Below, piece after piece: positions 46,995-55,013 of a stretch of 64,000 nt of DNA. The notes under the pieces were generated by a model that saw only the letters and a program-made list of their open reading frames with translations, made no database searches and was not told the origin of the DNA. The DNA lies in contig CAXXUA010000004.1 in NCBI GenBank assembly GCA_963663765.2, positions 32,001 to 96,000 on the forward strand, given 5' to 3'. How positions within the stretch are numbered: the first letter of the stretch is position 1; each line of letters begins with the position of its first letter. The position numbers and the translations under genes are program-made. Source of the stretch: Candidatus Poribacteria bacterium. Lineage in GTDB: Bacteria > Poribacteria > WGA-4E > WGA-3G.

Positions 46995-47170
46995 CTGACA
47001 TACTCCCCAAGCTAAAGCATGGGTGTTCTCAGTTCTTATATTGGAAACGGTTTGAGTTGTTTCCAAACGACTTTTCCTGCTTCCGTGTCTCGTGCCCTTT
47101 CCTGAACAGCGTTGGGTCTTATTTGCACTCCACAAGCGTGACTTTCGGTGTGCCCCACCGTAGTTGGTTT
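46995..47170 (-). ncRNA. Predicted omega/reRNA scaffold overlapping the tnpB 3' end
   Basis: Established TnpB biology plus sequence conservation with 21418-21560 beyond the catalytic region; 5' boundary approximate. Confidence 0.5.
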
Positions 47171-48226
47171 CAAGTTTATGGCAGCGTTGACATCTCTATC
47201 TATAGACATATCACATTGACTGCAGTGATACATTCTTTCTGAAAGTGTAAGGTCTTTCTTTTTGTGTCCACAACCGGAACAGGTTTTACTACTTGCAAAG
47301 AACTGATCTGCTTCTTTGACAGGTATACCGCGCACTTCCGCTTTTGTCTTGAGTTTTAGCAGGAAACCGCCTAATGCTGAATCTGACAATACTTTTGCGA
47401 GGTTTCTGTTCTTCAGCATATTAGTAACCTTGAGTGTCTCAATACCGATCGCAGCGGCACGGTTGACAATCTCTGTAGTTGCTTTGTGATGTGCGTCGTT
47501 TCGGATACAAGCGATACGATAGTGGATACGTTGTAACTCGTGTTTCTGCTTGAACCAGTTTTTAGACTTGAAAACACGACGGCTCAACTTGCGTTGTTCT
47601 CTCTTTAGCTTCCGCTCATAACGTTTTAGCGGTCGGGGATTATCATATTTCGTGCCATTACTCAAGGTGGCAAGTGTGTTGATGCCTACATCTACACCAA
47701 TCACAGGGTGCGTTGAATTATCAACTGCTTCGGTGTCCTCTGTTTCTACGGTGATAGATACAAACCAACGATGTGCTGTCCTTGAGATCGTCACTTTCAT
47801 AATCTTACCCACAAAACGCAATGATTCAAACATTCTAATCCAACCAATCTTAGGAAGTTTGATACGCTTGCCTTCAACTTCCACAGATTGATTATTTGTG
47901 GTGAATGCATCCTTTTTACCACGCTTCTTGAACTTCGGAAACTTTGCACGTTTACCAACCCAATTCGCAAGCGCAGCCGATAAGTTGCCAAATATGCTTT
48001 TGTTGGCTACAACCTGATCCATATCTTTTGTCCAAGCATGTTCTTTCTTAGCAACATTAAACCGCTTGTTTAACTTAGCAGCTGATAAGAACTCATCATT
48101 TGCCAATGCAGACTTGAAATCTGCTAATGCATGATTATATGCAAATCTCGCATAGCCACACTGTTGTGCAAACCAATTGCGTTGATTGTAATTTGGATTC
48201 AATGCAATCTTATGTGTTTTTAGCAT
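47036..48226 (-). CDS. tnpB: TnpB RNA-guided endonuclease
   Basis: HTH N-terminus, RuvC D (IGVDVG), E (IETL), D (DRDVNAAINL), Zn finger CSGC..CSQC. Confidence 0.93.
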   Translation of the reverse strand: MLKTHKIALNPNYNQRNWFAQQCGYARFAYNHALADFKSALANDEFLSAAKLNKRFNVAKKEHAWTKDMDQVVANKSIFGNLSAALANWVGKRAKFPKFKKRGKKDAFTTNNQSVEVEGKRIKLPKIGWIRMFESLRFVGKIMKVTISRTAHRWFVSITVETEDTEAVDNSTHPVIGVDVGINTLATLSNGTKYDNPRPLKRYERKLKREQRKLSRRVFKSKNWFKQKHELQRIHYRIACIRNDAHHKATTEIVNRAAAIGIETLKVTNMLKNRNLAKVLSDSALGGFLLKLKTKAEVRGIPVKEADQFFASSKTCSGCGHKKKDLTLSERMYHCSQCDMSIDRDVNAAINLKPTTVGHTESHACGVQIRPNAVQERARDTEAGKVVWKQLKPFPI

Positions 48227-48941: not shown

Positions 48942-51431
48942 ATGAATAAAAAAACAATTCATATTTCTTTAACATTTTATATTTTTTTGTATGTTCTTCT
49001 AATAGTTATATCTGAAACAATTGCAGATCCTGTGGACATTCCTGATCCTGGCCTTCGCAAAGCATTAGAAGTGATGCTTAATAAGAAGCCGGGTGAAATA
49101 ATTACTGAGGCGGAAATGGGAGCGGAGAATTTCAAAATCCTTGGTGCACAGGAAAGGAATATTAACGATTTAACAGGACTTGAATTTGCAACCAACCTTC
49201 AATATGTATATCTTGAGTGGAATTCAATCTCAGATTTGTCACCGTTGTCAGAATTAACCAGTTTGGAACATTTACATCTTGAACATAACCAAATATCAGA
49301 CATTTCACCTCTCTCTAACTTTCCTGCACTAAAGAGTCTTAACATTTCATACAACAATCTTACAAGTCTGGAAGGTTTACCAGACCTAAGTTTGGTGTAT
49401 GCGCTCTTTTTACAACACAACCAAATAACCAGCATTAAACCTTTTATAGATCACACCGAATTCACCAGTGTCAATGACCCATATCGTGTTAATGTAGACT
49501 TGGAGGGTAACCCATTAGACGATGATTCTGCAAATATTTACTTTCCAATACTGTTTTTTGATAGAAGTATTGATGTATCTTTCACACTCACATTCATGAA
49601 GAAGGTTTCAGGTGATAAACAAACGGCATCCACCAACACGACGCTGCAACCGTTTGTCATCGAAGTATACAATTACAAAAATGAAAAACTATCGGGAGTC
49701 GCTGTGCGATTTGAACTTACTTCTGGTAGTGGTAGTTTTGTCAATGGTTACAAAAAATATGGTTACGAATCTTTTGATACGACAACTGATGCCGATGGCA
49801 AGGCTTCAGCAACACTAACTGCCGGATCAACAGCTGGCACTTACAAGATTTCTGTGTCTGCAACAATCGTGTATTCAAGTCATATTGGATCAGTAGGCAC
49901 TGGACCCTTTACTTTAACAATTAATGATCCCACACCAACTCAACAACAGGAAACAACACAACAAGAGCAAGAAGAAAATACACAACAACAGGAAACAACA
50001 CAAGAAGAGCAAGAAGAAAATATACAACAACAGGAAACGCAACAACAAGAAGAGGAAACGCAACAACAGGAAACAACACAACAAGTTAGTGAAGAACAAC
50101 AGGAAACAACACAACAACCTGAAACAAAGAACCTGTCTGAACCTGATCCAGATACACAATCTGAACAAAATCTGGAATCTGAGTCAGAACAACAGGAAAC
50201 AACACAACAAGTGAGTGAAGAACAACAGGAAACAACACAACAACCTGAAACAAAGAACCTGTCTGAACCTGATCCAGATACACAATCTGAACAAAATCTG
50301 GAATCTGAGTCAGAACAACAGGAAACAACACAACAAGATATTGAAGCACAACTATTGTCTAAATCTGAATCAGATATACAATCTGAACAACAACTTGAAC
50401 CGGAACCAGAAACAAATTATACTAAAATACCATTTGATTATCACTGGGAAAATGTTGGTAAAGTCGTTATTAGTGAGATTATGTTAGCGACGCTTGGAAA
50501 ATTTCCACAATGGATAGAGTTATACAATACTACTGATCAAGACATAGAGTTGAATGGGTGGAAAATCGTTGGAAGATATAAAGATGATTTAGATGCGGTA
50601 CACATATTAGAATCTCAAGTAATTACAATGTCAATAACAATAAAGGCTAAAGAAACAGTTTTATTAGTAAGTTATACATTACCAAATTTTAGGGACAGAG
50701 TTTCTGAAGGTTTTTCAAACAAAATCTGTTCTTTACAAGCAGCATCAATTAACCTTTGCAATTATAAGGGTCTCGTATTAGAATTACAAGATTCAGAAGG
50801 TAACCCTATTGATCGTATTGGCAATCTAAACGATAAGGACGAAATCGTATGGGAAATTCCTATACTTGTTCGAAATAAAAGAGTTTCTCTTATACGAAGA
50901 CTAAAATCGGTTCGATCACAAGAATATAATTTTTCATTTGGAATGAAAAAATTCGGTTGGTTTCCTGCAGAAAATGTAAAGGATTTGCGTGATAGTAATA
51001 ATCGTTATTTTTATGGCAGTTCAACTGATATCGGAACTCCAGGCTATAGAACAGAATCTGGTGAAATGTTACCTGTTACTTTATCATCGTTTCGTCCTCA
51101 ACTGAATCAAGATGGCCATGTTAGGTTGAGTTGGATTACTGAATCGGAATTAGAAAATGCTGGTTTCAATATCTTGCGTAGTGAGTTTAGAAAAGGTCCG
51201 TTTGTAAAAGTCAATCCGAAACTCATACAAGGTGCTGGTACGACGGGACAACGTAGTTTCTATTCCTGGACAGATACAACAGCAAAACCTGATGTTGAAT
51301 ATTACTACCGACTTGAAGATGTAGCTTTTTCAGGTGAACGACAAACCTTAACAACAAAACGTATAAAAGGAATGCTTTCAGCCAAGAATAGATTTACAAC
51401 GCAATGGGGACGACTAAAATCAAGACATTAA
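48942..51431 (+). CDS. Internalin-like LRR surface protein with Ig-like (Big-1), Q/E/T-rich linker, lamin-tail domain and C-terminal TWGxLK-type motif
   Basis: IPDPGLR cap, L.L..N.ISDLSPLS LRRs, TTDADGKASATLT, VISEIM...QWIELYN, LPVTLSSF, TTQWGRLK. Confidence 0.85.
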   Translation: MNKKTIHISLTFYIFLYVLLIVISETIADPVDIPDPGLRKALEVMLNKKPGEIITEAEMGAENFKILGAQERNINDLTGLEFATNLQYVYLEWNSISDLSPLSELTSLEHLHLEHNQISDISPLSNFPALKSLNISYNNLTSLEGLPDLSLVYALFLQHNQITSIKPFIDHTEFTSVNDPYRVNVDLEGNPLDDDSANIYFPILFFDRSIDVSFTLTFMKKVSGDKQTASTNTTLQPFVIEVYNYKNEKLSGVAVRFELTSGSGSFVNGYKKYGYESFDTTTDADGKASATLTAGSTAGTYKISVSATIVYSSHIGSVGTGPFTLTINDPTPTQQQETTQQEQEENTQQQETTQEEQEENIQQQETQQQEEETQQQETTQQVSEEQQETTQQPETKNLSEPDPDTQSEQNLESESEQQETTQQVSEEQQETTQQPETKNLSEPDPDTQSEQNLESESEQQETTQQDIEAQLLSKSESDIQSEQQLEPEPETNYTKIPFDYHWENVGKVVISEIMLATLGKFPQWIELYNTTDQDIELNGWKIVGRYKDDLDAVHILESQVITMSITIKAKETVLLVSYTLPNFRDRVSEGFSNKICSLQAASINLCNYKGLVLELQDSEGNPIDRIGNLNDKDEIVWEIPILVRNKRVSLIRRLKSVRSQEYNFSFGMKKFGWFPAENVKDLRDSNNRYFYGSSTDIGTPGYRTESGEMLPVTLSSFRPQLNQDGHVRLSWITESELENAGFNILRSEFRKGPFVKVNPKLIQGAGTTGQRSFYSWTDTTAKPDVEYYYRLEDVAFSGERQTLTTKRIKGMLSAKNRFTTQWGRLKSRH
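50062..50337 (+). repeat. 126-bp (42-aa) near-perfect tandem duplication in a QQETT-rich linker
   Basis: Units start at 50062 and 50188, with a partial third at 50314. Confidence 0.9.
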
Positions 51432-51603: not shown

Positions 51604-52935
51604 ATGAAGTTTATTGCACCAGTATTTATTTTTTTGATCCTTGTTTGTACTGCACTCCCTTGTTTTGGACATGGTGACGAGGAAGTTGCAGAAGATCAAG
51701 AGATGGTCAAATCAACCGGTTTATGGATATACAACGACCTTGAAAAAGGAATAACACAAGCTGAAGAGACAGGTAAACCGATGCTTGTTGTTTTCCGCTG
51801 AGTACCGTGAGTGTCCTGTCAAGGCATTGATGAACAGGTTGTTCGTCACGAAGAATCAATAAAAGATTTAATGGAACAGTTTGTATGTGTACGCATCGTA
51901 CAAGGTAACGGTATTGACCTATCTGTCTTTCAATTTGATTACGATCTCACTTTTGCAGCTTTTTTCATGAACGTTGATAAAACCATTTATGGTCGCTTCG
52001 GTACACGTGCAGAATACAGAAACGCTGCAAAGAATATATCTGTTGAAGGTTTTAAGCAAGCACTTGAAGCAGCACTTGAATTACACAAAGGTTATCCTGA
52101 CAACCAAGCAGTTTTAGCTGCAAAGACTGGTCCTGCTCCTTTAAAGAAAACACCAGAAGCATTTCCCGCATTACAACGATATCCATCTGATGTAAATTTA
52201 AGTAGACGTGTAGAAGGACAGTGTATACATTGCCACCAGATTGGTAAAGCACAACGTGAGATACATTGGTATGATAGGAAACCCGTACCAGATCAAGTGC
52301 TATATCCATTCCCAATGCCCGATGTGTTAGGGTTGAACTTTTCACCTAAACATCGTGCAAAAATTAGTAAGATTACACAAGGTTCGTCAGCAGAAAAAGA
52401 TGGTTTCAAACGCGCTGATGAAATTTTAACACTTGCTGGACAACCGATAATCTCAATTGCTGATATTCAATGGGTGTTACACCGTGCAAAAGACCACGAT
52501 GTATTACCAGTTACTGTGCTTCGTCATGGTGAAGAAATCAATCTTAATCTAACACTCAACAAAGGTTGGCGGAAAGCAAGCGACATCTCCTGGCGAACGA
52601 CAACCTATGAATTACGGCTTGTATCCTTGGGAGGTATGATACTTGAAGACTTGTCGAACACTGAACGCAAACAAAGCAATTTAAGCAATGATAATATGGC
52701 TCTGTTTGTTAAGGATTTGATGCGACGTGATCGTCGTGCAAATAGTCAGACAAATGCTCAAAAAGCGGGTATCCGACGAGGAGACATATTAGTCGGTTTC
52801 GGTGAACGAACTGATCGAGTCTCTGAAAGTAATATCATTGGATATGTGCTACAAGAACAAGCCAAAGCCAAGTCTTTACCTGTTAAAATCAACCGAAATG
52901 GAAATTTGTTAGATGTGAACCTATCACTTGAATAG
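51604..52935 (+). CDS. Exported thioredoxin-like/PDZ selenoprotein with two in-frame UGA (UVPUVSC) and a CxxCH motif
   Basis: ORFs 51604-51801 and 51811-52935 share a frame and are separated only by TGA-GTA-CCG-TGA at the Trx CxxC position (GKPMLVVFR-U-V-P-U); downstream SECIS-like hairpin; signal peptide; PDZ-like segments. Confidence 0.85.
51828..51848 (+). promoter_or_regulatory. Candidate bacterial SECIS element
   Basis: TGATGAACA-GGT-TGTTCGTCA stem-loop (one G.U pair) with an apical G, loop ~26 nt after the second UGA and ~35 nt after the first. Confidence 0.65.
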
Positions 52936-52953: not shown

Positions 52954-53146
52954 CAGGACTTACGCAGTTTTCATGATCCAATTAAGAATTAAGACGAAAA
53001 CGATGTAATTTTCAGCATTTTTTAGGTTTCCGGCGCGCTTACAAAGCACCAAATCAAGTAATCAACGGAATGAATACCTTATGGTATTCCCCGGGTATGA
53101 ATGCCATTTAGGCATTCCCCGCCTACCGTTAGGTGCGTAAGTCCTG
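52954..53146. mobile_element. CAGGACTTACGCA MITE (TSD ATGAG) carrying a ~70-bp hairpin insert in its REP
   Basis: Perfect TIRs and TSD; relative to the 123-bp copies it has an extra segment at 53051-53120. Confidence 0.9.
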
Positions 53147-53178
53147 ATGAGAATTATAACTACATTAAAAGGATTGAC

Positions 53179-54375
53179 ATGTTACGTAAAATAACTCTTA
53201 TACTGGTTTTGTTTTCGATAGCTTGTATCGTTGCAATCACAATTAGTGCAATTGAATCTGCAGAAGAAGTTGATGCGGATAAAACAACTGAAATTGCTAA
53301 GATTTCAAAAGAACCGAACATAGTTGCTTTGTCAAAAGTTATGAAAACATTCCGTGATTCATTAACTGAAGAACTGCTTGTCGCTGCCTCCTATCCGCTT
53401 GGACATAAGGAATCGTATTCTTGGTCTAATCTACCAGCATCAAGGAACAGTGATCGTGGTGGTATTGAATTTGCTAAGTTGTCTTTAGATCAATTAACAC
53501 TTTTTCATAAAGTATTAGATGCATTCTTGAGTGATGAAGGTTTGACCAAAGTATCTCTGATAACAAAAAGAGCAAAAACAACACTCAGCGAAATTAAGAC
53601 AGATTTTTGGAATTCACGTCCCTACTTTATTGCCCTGTTTGGTAACCCAGAGACAGATGGTTCTTGGGGATTCCAACTGGATGGACATCATTTAGCATTG
53701 AACTTTCTGGTGCATGGGGATGAGGTTACTATTGTTCCGAATCATCTCGGGACACAACCCACAATCATAGACGGCGCGATAGTGCTTGAAGACGAAAGAA
53801 AACTTGCATTAGCTCTACTCAATAGTCTTGACACCAATCAGAAAACAAAGGCAATACAAAAAAGCACTCGTCGCGGCTTGAAGGTAGGACCTGGAAGCAG
53901 AACTGACCCTTACCTGAATTATGATTACTCAAACTTTGTTGGTGTTGGTTTGAAAGCATCTGAAATGGATGATGCGCAACAACAGAATCTCCGGAAACTG
54001 ATTAAAGCCTATGTCTACAATCTTGAAACTGAGTTTGCAGATATCTGGATGAAAGACATTGACGTTGAACTTGACGACACCTATTTTGCTTGGATCGGCG
54101 GAACAACAGAAAACGATTCCATTTATTATCGTGTGTTCAATCCAGCGGTTTGGATTGAATTTAACGACGAAGCAAGGGGTAGTGATGGTAAACCGAATCA
54201 TATTCATACGATCACCAGAGCACCCAACGGTAAAGACTACGGTATTTTTGCATTGAATAGAGGTCCAAGAACACTATTAGAACACTATGCAATGGCAGAT
54301 CATCATAAATCAAGTAAAGTGTTTTTTGATTATACAACCTCCGATTTATCAGTAAAAAAAGTGAAGGAGCATTAA
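53179..54375 (+). CDS. DUF3500 domain exported protein
   Basis: WSNLP...RGG, FG.P....WGFQLDGHHLALN, YFAWIG, WIEF, NHIHTITR.P..KDYG; start MLRKI with signal peptide. Confidence 0.8.
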   Translation: MLRKITLILVLFSIACIVAITISAIESAEEVDADKTTEIAKISKEPNIVALSKVMKTFRDSLTEELLVAASYPLGHKESYSWSNLPASRNSDRGGIEFAKLSLDQLTLFHKVLDAFLSDEGLTKVSLITKRAKTTLSEIKTDFWNSRPYFIALFGNPETDGSWGFQLDGHHLALNFLVHGDEVTIVPNHLGTQPTIIDGAIVLEDERKLALALLNSLDTNQKTKAIQKSTRRGLKVGPGSRTDPYLNYDYSNFVGVGLKASEMDDAQQQNLRKLIKAYVYNLETEFADIWMKDIDVELDDTYFAWIGGTTENDSIYYRVFNPAVWIEFNDEARGSDGKPNHIHTITRAPNGKDYGIFALNRGPRTLLEHYAMADHHKSSKVFFDYTTSDLSVKKVKEH

Positions 54376-55013
54376 TGTTTGATCAAGTTTTGTCAGAAGT
54401 TGAGCAACAGTGTCGTGAAGAACGGGTTCCAATGTTGGGACCAGATAAAGCAAAGTTACTTGCGACTACTGTTGAAAAGGCTAAACCCTCTCTCATTGTA
54501 GAGTGTGGTACAGCTATAGGTTACTCTGGTTTATGGATATTGCGTGTTTTGAAGACTTTAGGTTTAGGTCGTTTGATCACAGCAGAGATAAATCCTGAAA
54601 GCGCACAACGAGCAAGAGAAAACTTTAAAAAAGCTGGTGTAGCTGACCTTGTTGATTCACGAATTGGAGATGCAGCAGAAATATTAACAACAATTCAAGA
54701 ACCTGTGGATTTTTTGTTCCTTGACAACAACAAGGACGGCTATTACGCTTGTTTTAATGCAATTGAACCACAGTTAACCAGTCCTGCAACGATAGTTGCA
54801 GACAATGTTGGAAGAGCAGATCAGATGGCGGATTATCTGGAACATGTCCGATCTAACTACGAGTCAGAAACCCATTGGTTTGAAAGACGTCGAAGACGCA
54901 GACCTGATAGCGGTGGGGAAGCAAATCGTGGACCACGTAGACGAGACGGTGATGAAGGTAACAGAGGTCCACGCAGACGTGACGGAATGGAAGTTAGTAT
55001 TTTTCGTCGTTGA
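54375..55013 (+). CDS. Class I SAM-dependent O-methyltransferase with Arg-rich insertion
   Basis: VECGTAIGYSGLW, GDA, DFLFLD..K, IVADNV; translationally coupled (TAATG overlap). Confidence 0.88.
   Translation: MFDQVLSEVEQQCREERVPMLGPDKAKLLATTVEKAKPSLIVECGTAIGYSGLWILRVLKTLGLGRLITAEINPESAQRARENFKKAGVADLVDSRIGDAAEILTTIQEPVDFLFLDNNKDGYYACFNAIEPQLTSPATIVADNVGRADQMADYLEHVRSNYESETHWFERRRRRRPDSGGEANRGPRRRDGDEGNRGPRRRDGMEVSIFRR

Follow-up and report, generated by a model that had tools for sequence, protein, structure and literature searches.

The closest described relatives of the gene reported here are the Trx7/PDZ (seleno)proteins of the profile family NF041199. In the accessible part of the Global Ocean Sampling (GOS) survey the family is named 'Putative secreted serine protease MucD' selenoprotein and comprises 2 selenocysteine (Sec) sequences and 12 Cys homologs (PMC2398784). 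Review tables, as far as they are available, list it as 'PDZ domain-containing protein / Thioredoxin_7' with the motif CxxU, where U stands for Sec (PMC9312934, PMC13188914), and the Sec count tabulated for it in a 2026 review is '1'. Here we describe a member of this family encoded in a stretch of 64,000 nucleotides (nt) from a Candidatus Poribacteria bacterium (contig CAXXUA010000004.1 of assembly GCA_963663765.2, positions 32,001 to 96,000, forward strand), which is called the window in the following. The gene matches the NF041199 profile with 389 bits against a cut-off of 300 bits, over model positions 2–389 of 390 (372.6 bits in the genomic search), so that the Trx7/PDZ (seleno)protein family with Cys homologs mentioned in an earlier note, which was made from the letters of this DNA, exists and includes the gene. 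Profile family, architecture and the Sec at the CxxU position are the same as published, but here and in most members from Poribacteria the upstream Cys is also replaced by a UGA codon, resulting in UxxUxxC. The gene is a two-Sec variant of an already described family, not a new kind of protein. This variant is widespread, yet missing from the family tables in their accessible form; a double-Sec form of NF041199 is not reported in the searchable literature, and supplementary files may hold more.

A comparable situation is found in group 4 [NiFeSe] hydrogenases, where two UGAs lie two codons apart, CXXU and UXXU variants are interleaved on the tree and a conserved selenocysteine insertion sequence (SECIS) follows downstream of both; in the available text a single SECIS is proposed to serve both UGAs (PMC13582414, 2026). 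In the hydrogenase, which is cytoplasmic, the residues serve as Ni ligands, and the respective genomes are enriched in tRNA-ReC, whereas the protein studied here has a thioredoxin (Trx) fold that is presumably exported, its gene carries an extra hairpin and no tRNA-ReC was found. Another double-Sec protein, the peroxiredoxin-like SelL, reportedly forms a diselenide bond in a UxxU motif that replaces the canonical CxxC. How two Sec residues are inserted a few codons apart in bacteria is an open question, as the spacing between SelB and SECIS is thought to be tight. The present family constitutes a natural experiment in this respect: a single tree holds CxxC, CxxU and UxxU forms side by side, and a small hairpin tracks the second UGA.

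The gene comprises 443 codons and a stop in a single frame (51604–52935, plus strand) when the TGA codons 66 and 69 are read through, and the peptide around the TGAs reads GKPMLVVFR-U-VP-U-VS-C. Its parts are the following:

51604–52935, plus strand: whole gene, carrying two TGA codons in frame and belonging to NF041199, the Trx7/PDZ (seleno)proteins
51604–51669, plus strand: hydrophobic N-terminus, about residues 1–22, presumed Sec-type export signal (sequence; helix 4–16 of the model)
51724–51972, plus strand: Thioredoxin_7 domain, residues 41–123, the fold extending to about residue 175 (Pfam; profile matches to AGR2, 3fk8 and TXNDC12)
51799–51801, plus strand: TGA1, residue 66, a Sec/Cys position that is additional to the canonical Trx motif and precedes it by three residues; CxxU and CxxC forms have Cys here
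51808–51810, plus strand: TGA2, residue 69, aligned to the N-terminal (nucleophilic) Cys of the canonical CxxC (profile alignment)
51811–51827, plus strand: hairpin A, a small UxxU-specific stem-loop between TGA2 and the SECIS, with 6 base pairs (bp), one bulge and the loop GUCA
51817–51819, plus strand: TGT, Cys72, aligned to the C-terminal (resolving) CxxC position; the codon lies in the loop of hairpin A
51828–51848, plus strand: hairpin B, the SECIS, with a stem of 8–9 bp and the loop A-GGU-U
52222–52236, plus strand: C207-I-H-C210-H211, an invariant CxxCH and candidate covalent haem c site
52327–52557, plus strand: PDZ domain 1, residues 242–318 (Pfam, sequence and fold matches)
52603–52926, plus strand: PDZ domain 2, about residues 334–441, DegP/DegQ-like (sequence and fold matches)

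All coordinates of the earlier note were correct when the sequence was read again. Its reading of one 443-residue protein with a thioredoxin domain, CIHCH and PDZ is borne out by translation and by Pfam, which places Thioredoxin_7 at residues 41–123 (E 2.5e-15) and PDZ_2 at residues 242–318 (E 1.5e-13); it had also spoken of more than one PDZ-like domain, and two are found by sequence and fold. Translation table 11, however, cuts the frame into two open reading frames (ORFs) of 65 residues (51604–51801) and 374 residues (51811–52935). The AlphaFold model of the read-through protein has a predicted local distance difference test (pLDDT) score of 91.5 and a predicted template modelling (pTM) score of 0.88, and export is presumed from the hydrophobic N-terminus together with helix 4–16 of this model.

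Forms of the motif and their history

A profile search of 176 genomes of the phylum yielded NF041199 matches above the cut-off in just 45, so the gene is patchy. The 54 matches above the cut-off contain two TGAs in 46 cases, one in 5 and none in 3. Motifs were read for 50 of the 53 matches outside the window plus the window gene, 51 genes in all; the motif is legible in 50 of them, with 42 UxxUxxC, 1 CxxUxxC, 3 CxxUxxG and 4 CxxCxxC. A second set consists of the best 80 of 523 relatives in a named collection; it overlaps with the phylum set, and counts given later use distinct sequences. Among these best 80 loci we found 35 CxxC, 30 UxxU and 15 CxxU. The earlier note had suggested searching for homologs with CxxC, UxxC or CxxU at these positions: the first and third exist, but UxxC occurs in 0 of the 80 loci. 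The UxxU form is also present outside the phylum, in four Planctomycetota metagenome-assembled genomes and in metagenomes.

Some members deviate from these forms. L061, L064 and L065 (G010, G011 and G012) constitute a divergent subgroup on a very long branch (1.6) with FRCVPU-IN-G and no Cys72; they have CTECH or CVECH instead of CIHCH, and the SECIS is kept with another stem (GAUGCAC/GUGCAU). L076 (G009:C29) has the CxxC form and one TGA elsewhere in the frame.

The ratio of nonsynonymous to synonymous substitution rates (dN/dS) is 0.05–0.16 for the 45 codons before TGA1 (six comparisons) and 0.05–0.08 for the 120 codons after TGA2 (five of six comparisons, dS being saturated in the sixth). 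W41, P59, R65 and the Cys or Sec residues at 66 and 69 are invariant in 40 aligned members. Non-Cys residues in homologs or a dN/dS typical of a pseudogene had been named beforehand as findings that would speak against a selenoprotein; instead, homologs carry Cys and dN/dS lies at 0.05–0.16. The proposal that the locus is a pseudogene, a sequencing error or two genes, the product being a 374-residue PDZ protein starting from GTG at 51811, is hardly credible and already contradicted. Proteins of that kind with 350–375 residues are deposited in public databases for all close relatives, and some relatives are truly broken, with an extra TAA or TAG in L057 (G125:C107) and G043 and split or N-terminally truncated matches in G172, G056 and G163. 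However, the part before TGA1 evolves under a similar constraint to the part downstream, it provides the invariant W41, P59 and R65, the Pfam Trx_7 match crosses both TGAs, and both TGAs are found at identical positions in 42 of the 50 genes. In addition, assemblies from two studies (DNA contigs of runs X1 and X4, either of which may be the source sample) contain the stretch with 0 differences.

A quick maximum-likelihood tree was calculated from 105 distinct proteins, with C written for every U in order to keep the trait itself out of the tree. It requires 6 changes of the UxxU label, and at least 4 of these changes are forced by starred branches; CxxU and UxxU lineages appear as sisters, for example L031/L033 at 96*. 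When metagenome sequences were added (133 Sec-form Trx domains), 13 UxxU label changes were counted. The simplest reading of these trees, taken without a fixed root, is that CxxC would have turned into CxxU and then into UxxU, repeatedly and on an unchanged SECIS. The ancestral state would then be C-x-x-[U-x-x-C] with Sec at the canonical nucleophile, and the upstream Cys would have turned into Sec repeatedly.

A SECIS downstream of both UGA codons

The earlier note had pointed to a hairpin at 51828–51848 within SECIS distance of both TGAs. This hairpin B folds with 9 bp and a GGU loop at −9.2 kcal/mol (z −2.17; 6 of 200 shuffles equal it), and its loop starts 25–26 nt after TGA2 and 34–35 nt after TGA1. 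The bacterial SECIS model, in its accessible description, comprises a loop of 3–9 nt with a G among its two initial positions, a stem of 4–16 bp, a distance of 16–37 nt from the UGA and a minimum free energy (MFE) of at most −7.5 kcal/mol (PMC13188914); hairpin B lies within these limits for both UGAs.

Every Sec form carries the hairpin GAY-GNN-CAGGUUG-NN-CRU-C, whose offset is constant at nt +30 to +48 when counted from the first codon's U. Its cells are paired to 98.7% over 68 distinct Sec-form sequences versus 37.8% over 39 distinct Cys-form sequences. Two-sided changes are found in three pairs: 44–54 (AU 44, GC 16, CG 5 and GU 3), 42–56 (CG 57, UG 7 and UA 4) and 45–53 (AU 43, GU 21 and GC 4). 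In these changes, the wobble base of a Val codon varies together with an amino acid exchange (E, G or A). The covariation score of the whole two-hairpin structure was reached by 0 of 500 shuffles. Judged by this sequence covariation and its loss in Cys forms, hairpin B is a genuine SECIS at the position that had been pointed out. The SECIS also constrains the protein: codons 76–81 almost always read D-[E/G/A]-Q-V-V-R in Sec forms (CAG GUU GUN CGU), while they are variable in Cys forms. A 31-nt contig of run X1 with a depth of 85, compared to 6.6 for the contig of the gene, lies on the SECIS hairpin (51821–51851) with 3 differences, as expected if many co-occurring strains share a conserved RNA element.

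A second hairpin in the UxxU forms

The 18 nt between TGA2 and the SECIS (51811–51828) fold into a small stem-loop of −4.0 kcal/mol with the Cys72 codon in its loop, and hairpins A and B are both present in the centroid fold of the region. The loop of hairpin A, GUCA, has its G in first position and starts 16 nt after UGA1, which agrees with the loop and spacing limits of the SECIS model. In the first set, all three inner pairs of hairpin A are formed in 34 of 50 UxxU sequences but in 1 of 18 CxxU and 1 of 39 CxxC sequences.

A metagenome sample was then drawn separately with a pattern scan that required the SECIS core (at least 120 stretches, 80 loci, 71 sequences with family context). Among the matches listed, hairpin A has an MFE of −2 kcal/mol or lower in 27 of 28 UxxU versus 10 of 43 CxxU sequences, and its stems are diverse (GCCU/AGGC, GGAC/GUCC, GGCG/CGCC and GGGA/UCCC). 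For the combined set the numbers are 76 of 77 UxxU versus 12 of 56 CxxU sequences at this threshold, which was picked after seeing the data, and 68 of 77 versus 9 of 56 at −3 kcal/mol. The starred branches provide 6 independent contrasts, compared to 13 when every branch is used. Of these 6, about 5.3 point in the same direction and 0 in the opposite one at −2 kcal/mol, with a median p of 0.0625; a smaller test with 4 contrasts gave p ∼0.125. We also resampled synonymous codons while keeping each peptide constant. In UxxU sequences the observed mean was −4.42 versus −1.67 kcal/mol for the resamples, 43 of 77 sequences fell into the best 10% and the median rank was 0.08, whereas CxxU sequences showed −1.38 versus −1.00 kcal/mol, 9 of 56 in the best 10% and a median rank of 0.47. 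The idea of one shared SECIS put forward in the earlier note thus stands for hairpin B, which both UGAs share; as a single element it is probably incomplete, since the UxxU forms add hairpin A.

We consider it possible, with a probability of roughly 0.4, that a hairpin around the Cys72 codon, 9–12 nt past UGA1, was gained whenever the upstream Cys became UGA (at least 6 to 13 changes) and is required for decoding UGA1, which lies only 9 nt from UGA2, that this reflects a general rule for double Sec insertion in bacteria, and that the product is a haem c selenoprotein of the periplasm in which Sec, Sec and Cys form a triad. An RNA structure 9–12 nt after the A-site codon sits at the mRNA entrance of the ribosome, and the mini-SECIS of E. 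coli fdhF is located ∼11 nt from its UGA. Hairpin A would aid the decoding of UGA1, and it could do so by serving as a second SECIS of minimal size, by drawing the mRNA together so that hairpin B comes within range, or by a pause during which SelB reloads; these three mechanisms are not separable on the evidence. With interleaved forms, a shared SECIS and an extra hairpin, the decoding question is directly testable with reporter constructs.

Several points weigh against the overall reading of the gene, with both UGAs recoded, hairpin A as an aid to decoding and CxxCH as a haem site. Hairpin A of the window is weak and with −4.0 kcal/mol fails the energy limit of −7.5 kcal/mol, its association with the UxxU form is carried by just 6 well-supported independent contrasts, and a scan of the whole window with Rfam at the gathering threshold gave 0 matches. 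A survey of selA found it above the cut-off in 163 of the 176 phylum genomes; being nearly universal, its presence does not discriminate, and G077, the closest relative with a UxxU gene, has no selA match in its 300-contig assembly. A second SelC-like tRNA was not found, 15 of 15 RF01852 matches being ordinary tRNAs or the one tRNA-Sec, but a SelC*-type tRNA of unusual form might escape ARAGORN and RF01852, and genome completeness is 97.8%. Contigs from RNA libraries (X9 and X10) span only 52155–52388 with 2 differences; the TGAs lie outside, so these contigs are silent on the TGAs and on expression in this strain. At the CxxCH segment no Pfam cytochrome family was recognised in the 40 members, and a match to the Pfam family MCR (residues 204–216) in 2 of the 40 is not significant (E 0.26). 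No gene partner recurs across phyla among the 80 loci, and with no neighbour conserved beyond Poribacteria the gene context lends no functional support. Selenium insertion, diselenide and haem are all predictions from sequence.

Alternatively, hairpin A might have no role in decoding and arise as a by-product of amino acids favoured near U66 or of shared ancestry, which we regard as rather doubtful. Many of the UxxU sequences come from related Poribacteria, the sign test on independent contrasts stays above 0.05, and RNAalifold applied to all Sec forms predicts hairpin B alone. However, the UxxU sequences contain 35 distinct hexapeptides, and stems and registers differ between them. Real codons outperform synonymous resamples in UxxU but not in CxxU sequences, the separately drawn metagenome sample shows the same difference among the matches listed, and none of the independent contrasts runs the opposite way at −2 kcal/mol. 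We retain the interpretation that hairpin A would serve the decoding of UGA1.

Selenium machinery and probable decoding of the UGA codons

The genome contains selA (620.8 bits), selB (361.6 bits) and selD (367.6 bits), and the gene for tRNA-Sec (selC, 78.5 bits) follows directly after selB; all four genes whose presence had been proposed as a check were found. ARAGORN detected 51 tRNAs in the genome and no tRNA in the window. One of the 51 is a tRNA-SeC(tca), and one is a tRNA-Cys(gca) of the ordinary type with a length of 75 nt. The selD gene (G000:C2:220603–221529, outside the window) contains one in-frame TGA, which we take to be its known Sec site, and SelD is apparently a selenoprotein too. 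We rejected the idea of a changed genetic code in which TGA has a sense meaning: the frames of selA and selB have no internal TGA, only selD has one, and TGA terminates ordinary ORFs. A scan of the genome for in-frame TGA-N6-TGA gave 41 candidates; among the 25 inspected by eye only the gene described here was protein-like.

Both UGAs are very probably recoded by SelB and tRNA-Sec, most likely as Sec, in an intact gene of the expressed type that would encode a secreted Trx7/PDZ selenoprotein of 443 residues. This prediction follows from the frame being under purifying selection, the Cys homologs, the sel genes and the covarying SECIS.

It has been proposed for UXXU hydrogenases that either or both UGAs might be read as Cys if tRNA-ReC acts, and tRNA-ReC-like genes are enriched in genomes with these hydrogenases (∼56% versus ∼2.3%, in the accessible part of PMC13582414). 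One or both UGAs of the present gene could likewise be read as Cys by such a SelC*-type tRNA using SelB and the SECIS, which would leave CxxU, UxxC or CxxC in the mature protein. We consider this very unlikely: the 51 tRNAs of the genome include just one tRNA-SeC(tca), the only tRNA-Cys(gca) is of the ordinary kind, and all RF01852 matches are explained. Moreover, the repeated change from C to U at codon 66 (6 and 13 label changes) and a dedicated hairpin are hard to explain for a Cys product. Sec at both positions remains the preferred assignment.

Active site and CxxCH segment

As a single sequence, the Trx domain gave weak but consistent alignments to solved structures. A profile of 19 family members matched AGR2 (E 1.2e-5), the disulphide isomerase 3fk8 (E 5.1e-5), AGR3 and TXNDC12 (both ∼2e-3). 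In these alignments C-P-H-S of AGR2 and C-T-D-C of 3fk8 correspond to U69-V-S-C72, and U66 corresponds to a non-Cys residue three positions earlier. U69-V-S-C72 fits the redox motif C/U-x-x-C/S/T at the canonical CxxC position. The statement in the earlier note that the TGAs fall on the two Cys of a thioredoxin CxxC does not hold in this respect, as the profile alignment places U66 outside the canonical motif. Since the latter is U69-x-x-C72, the published 'CxxU' of the family, whose U equals U69 (Sec in every Sec form, Cys in the Cys forms), is better written C-x-x-[U-x-x-C], and the window protein U-x-x-[U-x-x-C]. Weak NCBIfam matches to VPGUxxT families occur in the same region; going by the family name, VP-U-xx-C may correspond to VPG-U-xx-T in register. 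Conservation of Cys72 is at least 90%, and the divergent CxxUxxG subgroup is the only one that lacks this residue.

The Trx profile resembles that of proteins of the protein disulphide isomerase (PDI) type with Thioredoxin_7 domains, namely AGR2/AGR3, TXNDC12 (ERp18) and the Xylella protein 3fk8 (E 1.2e-5 to 2e-3), which lack the Sec, the extra residue at −3, the CxxCH and the PDZ domains of the window protein. SelL, with two Sec two residues apart in a fold of the Trx superfamily as predicted here, provides a precedent for a diselenide. In contrast to SelL, the UxxU seen in the window sequence has U69 alone at a canonical position, U66 being additional to U69-x-x-C72, and the protein belongs to another family with CxxCH and PDZ. 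After export U69 would attack substrate disulfides or oxidants, and C72 and/or U66 would resolve the adduct as a selenenylsulfide or diselenide; the latter, like the haem, is chemically plausible.

The CxxCH segment (C207, C210 and H211) is invariant in 19 of 19 and in 40 of 40 aligned members and occurs at +142 to +146 in 78 of the 80 named loci, including two with CIPCH. CxxCH in an exported protein is the classical haem c signature. The genome carries CcmF-like and CcmC-like genes, with CcmE adjoining CcmF, and ResB was not found in it; as Ccm genes are present, covalent haem attachment by System I is feasible. The invariant CxxCH would carry a c-type haem that exchanges electrons with the Sec centre. 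In magnetochrome proteins such as MamP and MamE, PDZ domains are likewise combined with a short periplasmic CxxCH haem-binding segment. Given the insignificant MCR match, this likeness is a resemblance and not a membership. If CxxCH does bind haem, a Sec-Sec-Cys centre would be coupled to a c-type haem and to DegP-like PDZ domains.

U66, U69 and C72, possibly together with C207, C210 and H211, could instead form a site for a metal or metalloid (for example Hg, Cu, As or Fe) in place of a thiol-disulfide redox centre with haem; the protein would then trap or chaperone metal in the periplasm and deliver it by way of its PDZ domains. UxxU is found in metal-binding selenoproteins, according to the accessible text in the mercuric-reductase-like NF041115 (review table) and as Ni ligands in hydrogenases (PMC13582414), three chalcogen residues at x-x spacing would resemble metal-binding motifs, and no cytochrome domain was recognised around CxxCH. 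We nevertheless judge a metal site to be unlikely, because the catalytic motif of PDI-like Trx proteins falls on U69-x-x-C72 in the alignment, and because a CxxCH whose His is invariant, in a protein that is exported and in a genome that has Ccm genes, is what is expected for haem c.

Annotation of the family

A search of a protein database (∼5.8 billion entries) shows how the family is presently represented. Among the matches listed, the ∼100 closest are fragments of 269–383 residues, mostly 350–375, that start after TGA2 and, if they have a name, are called 'peptidase', 'serine protease Do' or 'hypothetical protein'. Lengths of ∼440 residues with the Trx7 domain are found only in distant entries among the matches listed (P0101–P0121, at most 50% identity). 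The earlier note had called the gene hidden, and public databases do show only shortened forms among these matches. Annotation strips the redox domain from all listed close relatives and names the remainder 'peptidase'; this name and 'serine protease Do' are misleading. As a consequence, annotation overlooks a selenoprotein that is widespread in sponge symbionts, Planctomycetota and Verrucomicrobiota.

The PDZ half and the gene neighbourhood

Thioredoxin_7 followed by PDZ domains is found in 40 of 40 aligned family members. The C-terminal half is a DegP/DegQ-like PDZ1-PDZ2 tandem (sequence E 4e-18, fold E 1e-10), and the degP_htrA_DO profile matches residues 247–436 with 58.6 bits against a cut-off of 416.2 bits. 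The tandem PDZ and the presumed export are shared with the HtrA/DegP/DegQ proteases. In contrast to these, Pfam gave no match to a trypsin or peptidase-S1 domain in the window protein or the 40 members, and the N-terminal half consists of Trx7 and the CxxCH segment; the protein is not a member of this group. A Foldseek search with the whole model returned only PDZ matches to DegP, DegQ and RseP (TMq ≤ 0.27), and no solved structure with the whole architecture was matched. By analogy with DegP, the substrates recruited by the tandem PDZ would be unfolded proteins of the envelope or the C-termini of peptides, which it may deliver to the redox module.

Directly upstream of the gene (48942–51431, plus strand) lies a gene for an 829-residue protein. 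It combines leucine-rich repeats with an invasin-like domain and a Lamin Tail Domain, which is eukaryote-like; such repeat features are typical of sponge symbionts. Two genes upstream (47036–48226, minus strand) a 396-residue ORF with OrfB_IS605, Cas12f1-like TNB and HTH_OrfB_IS605 domains represents a TnpB-type element of the IS605 family, which is found beside the gene in only 1 of 80 related loci. The gene is followed by a DUF3500 protein and an O-methyltransferase (53101–55013, plus strand). These are the recurrent neighbours, DUF3500 in 15 and the O-methyltransferase in 20 of the 80 loci, all of them from Poribacteria.

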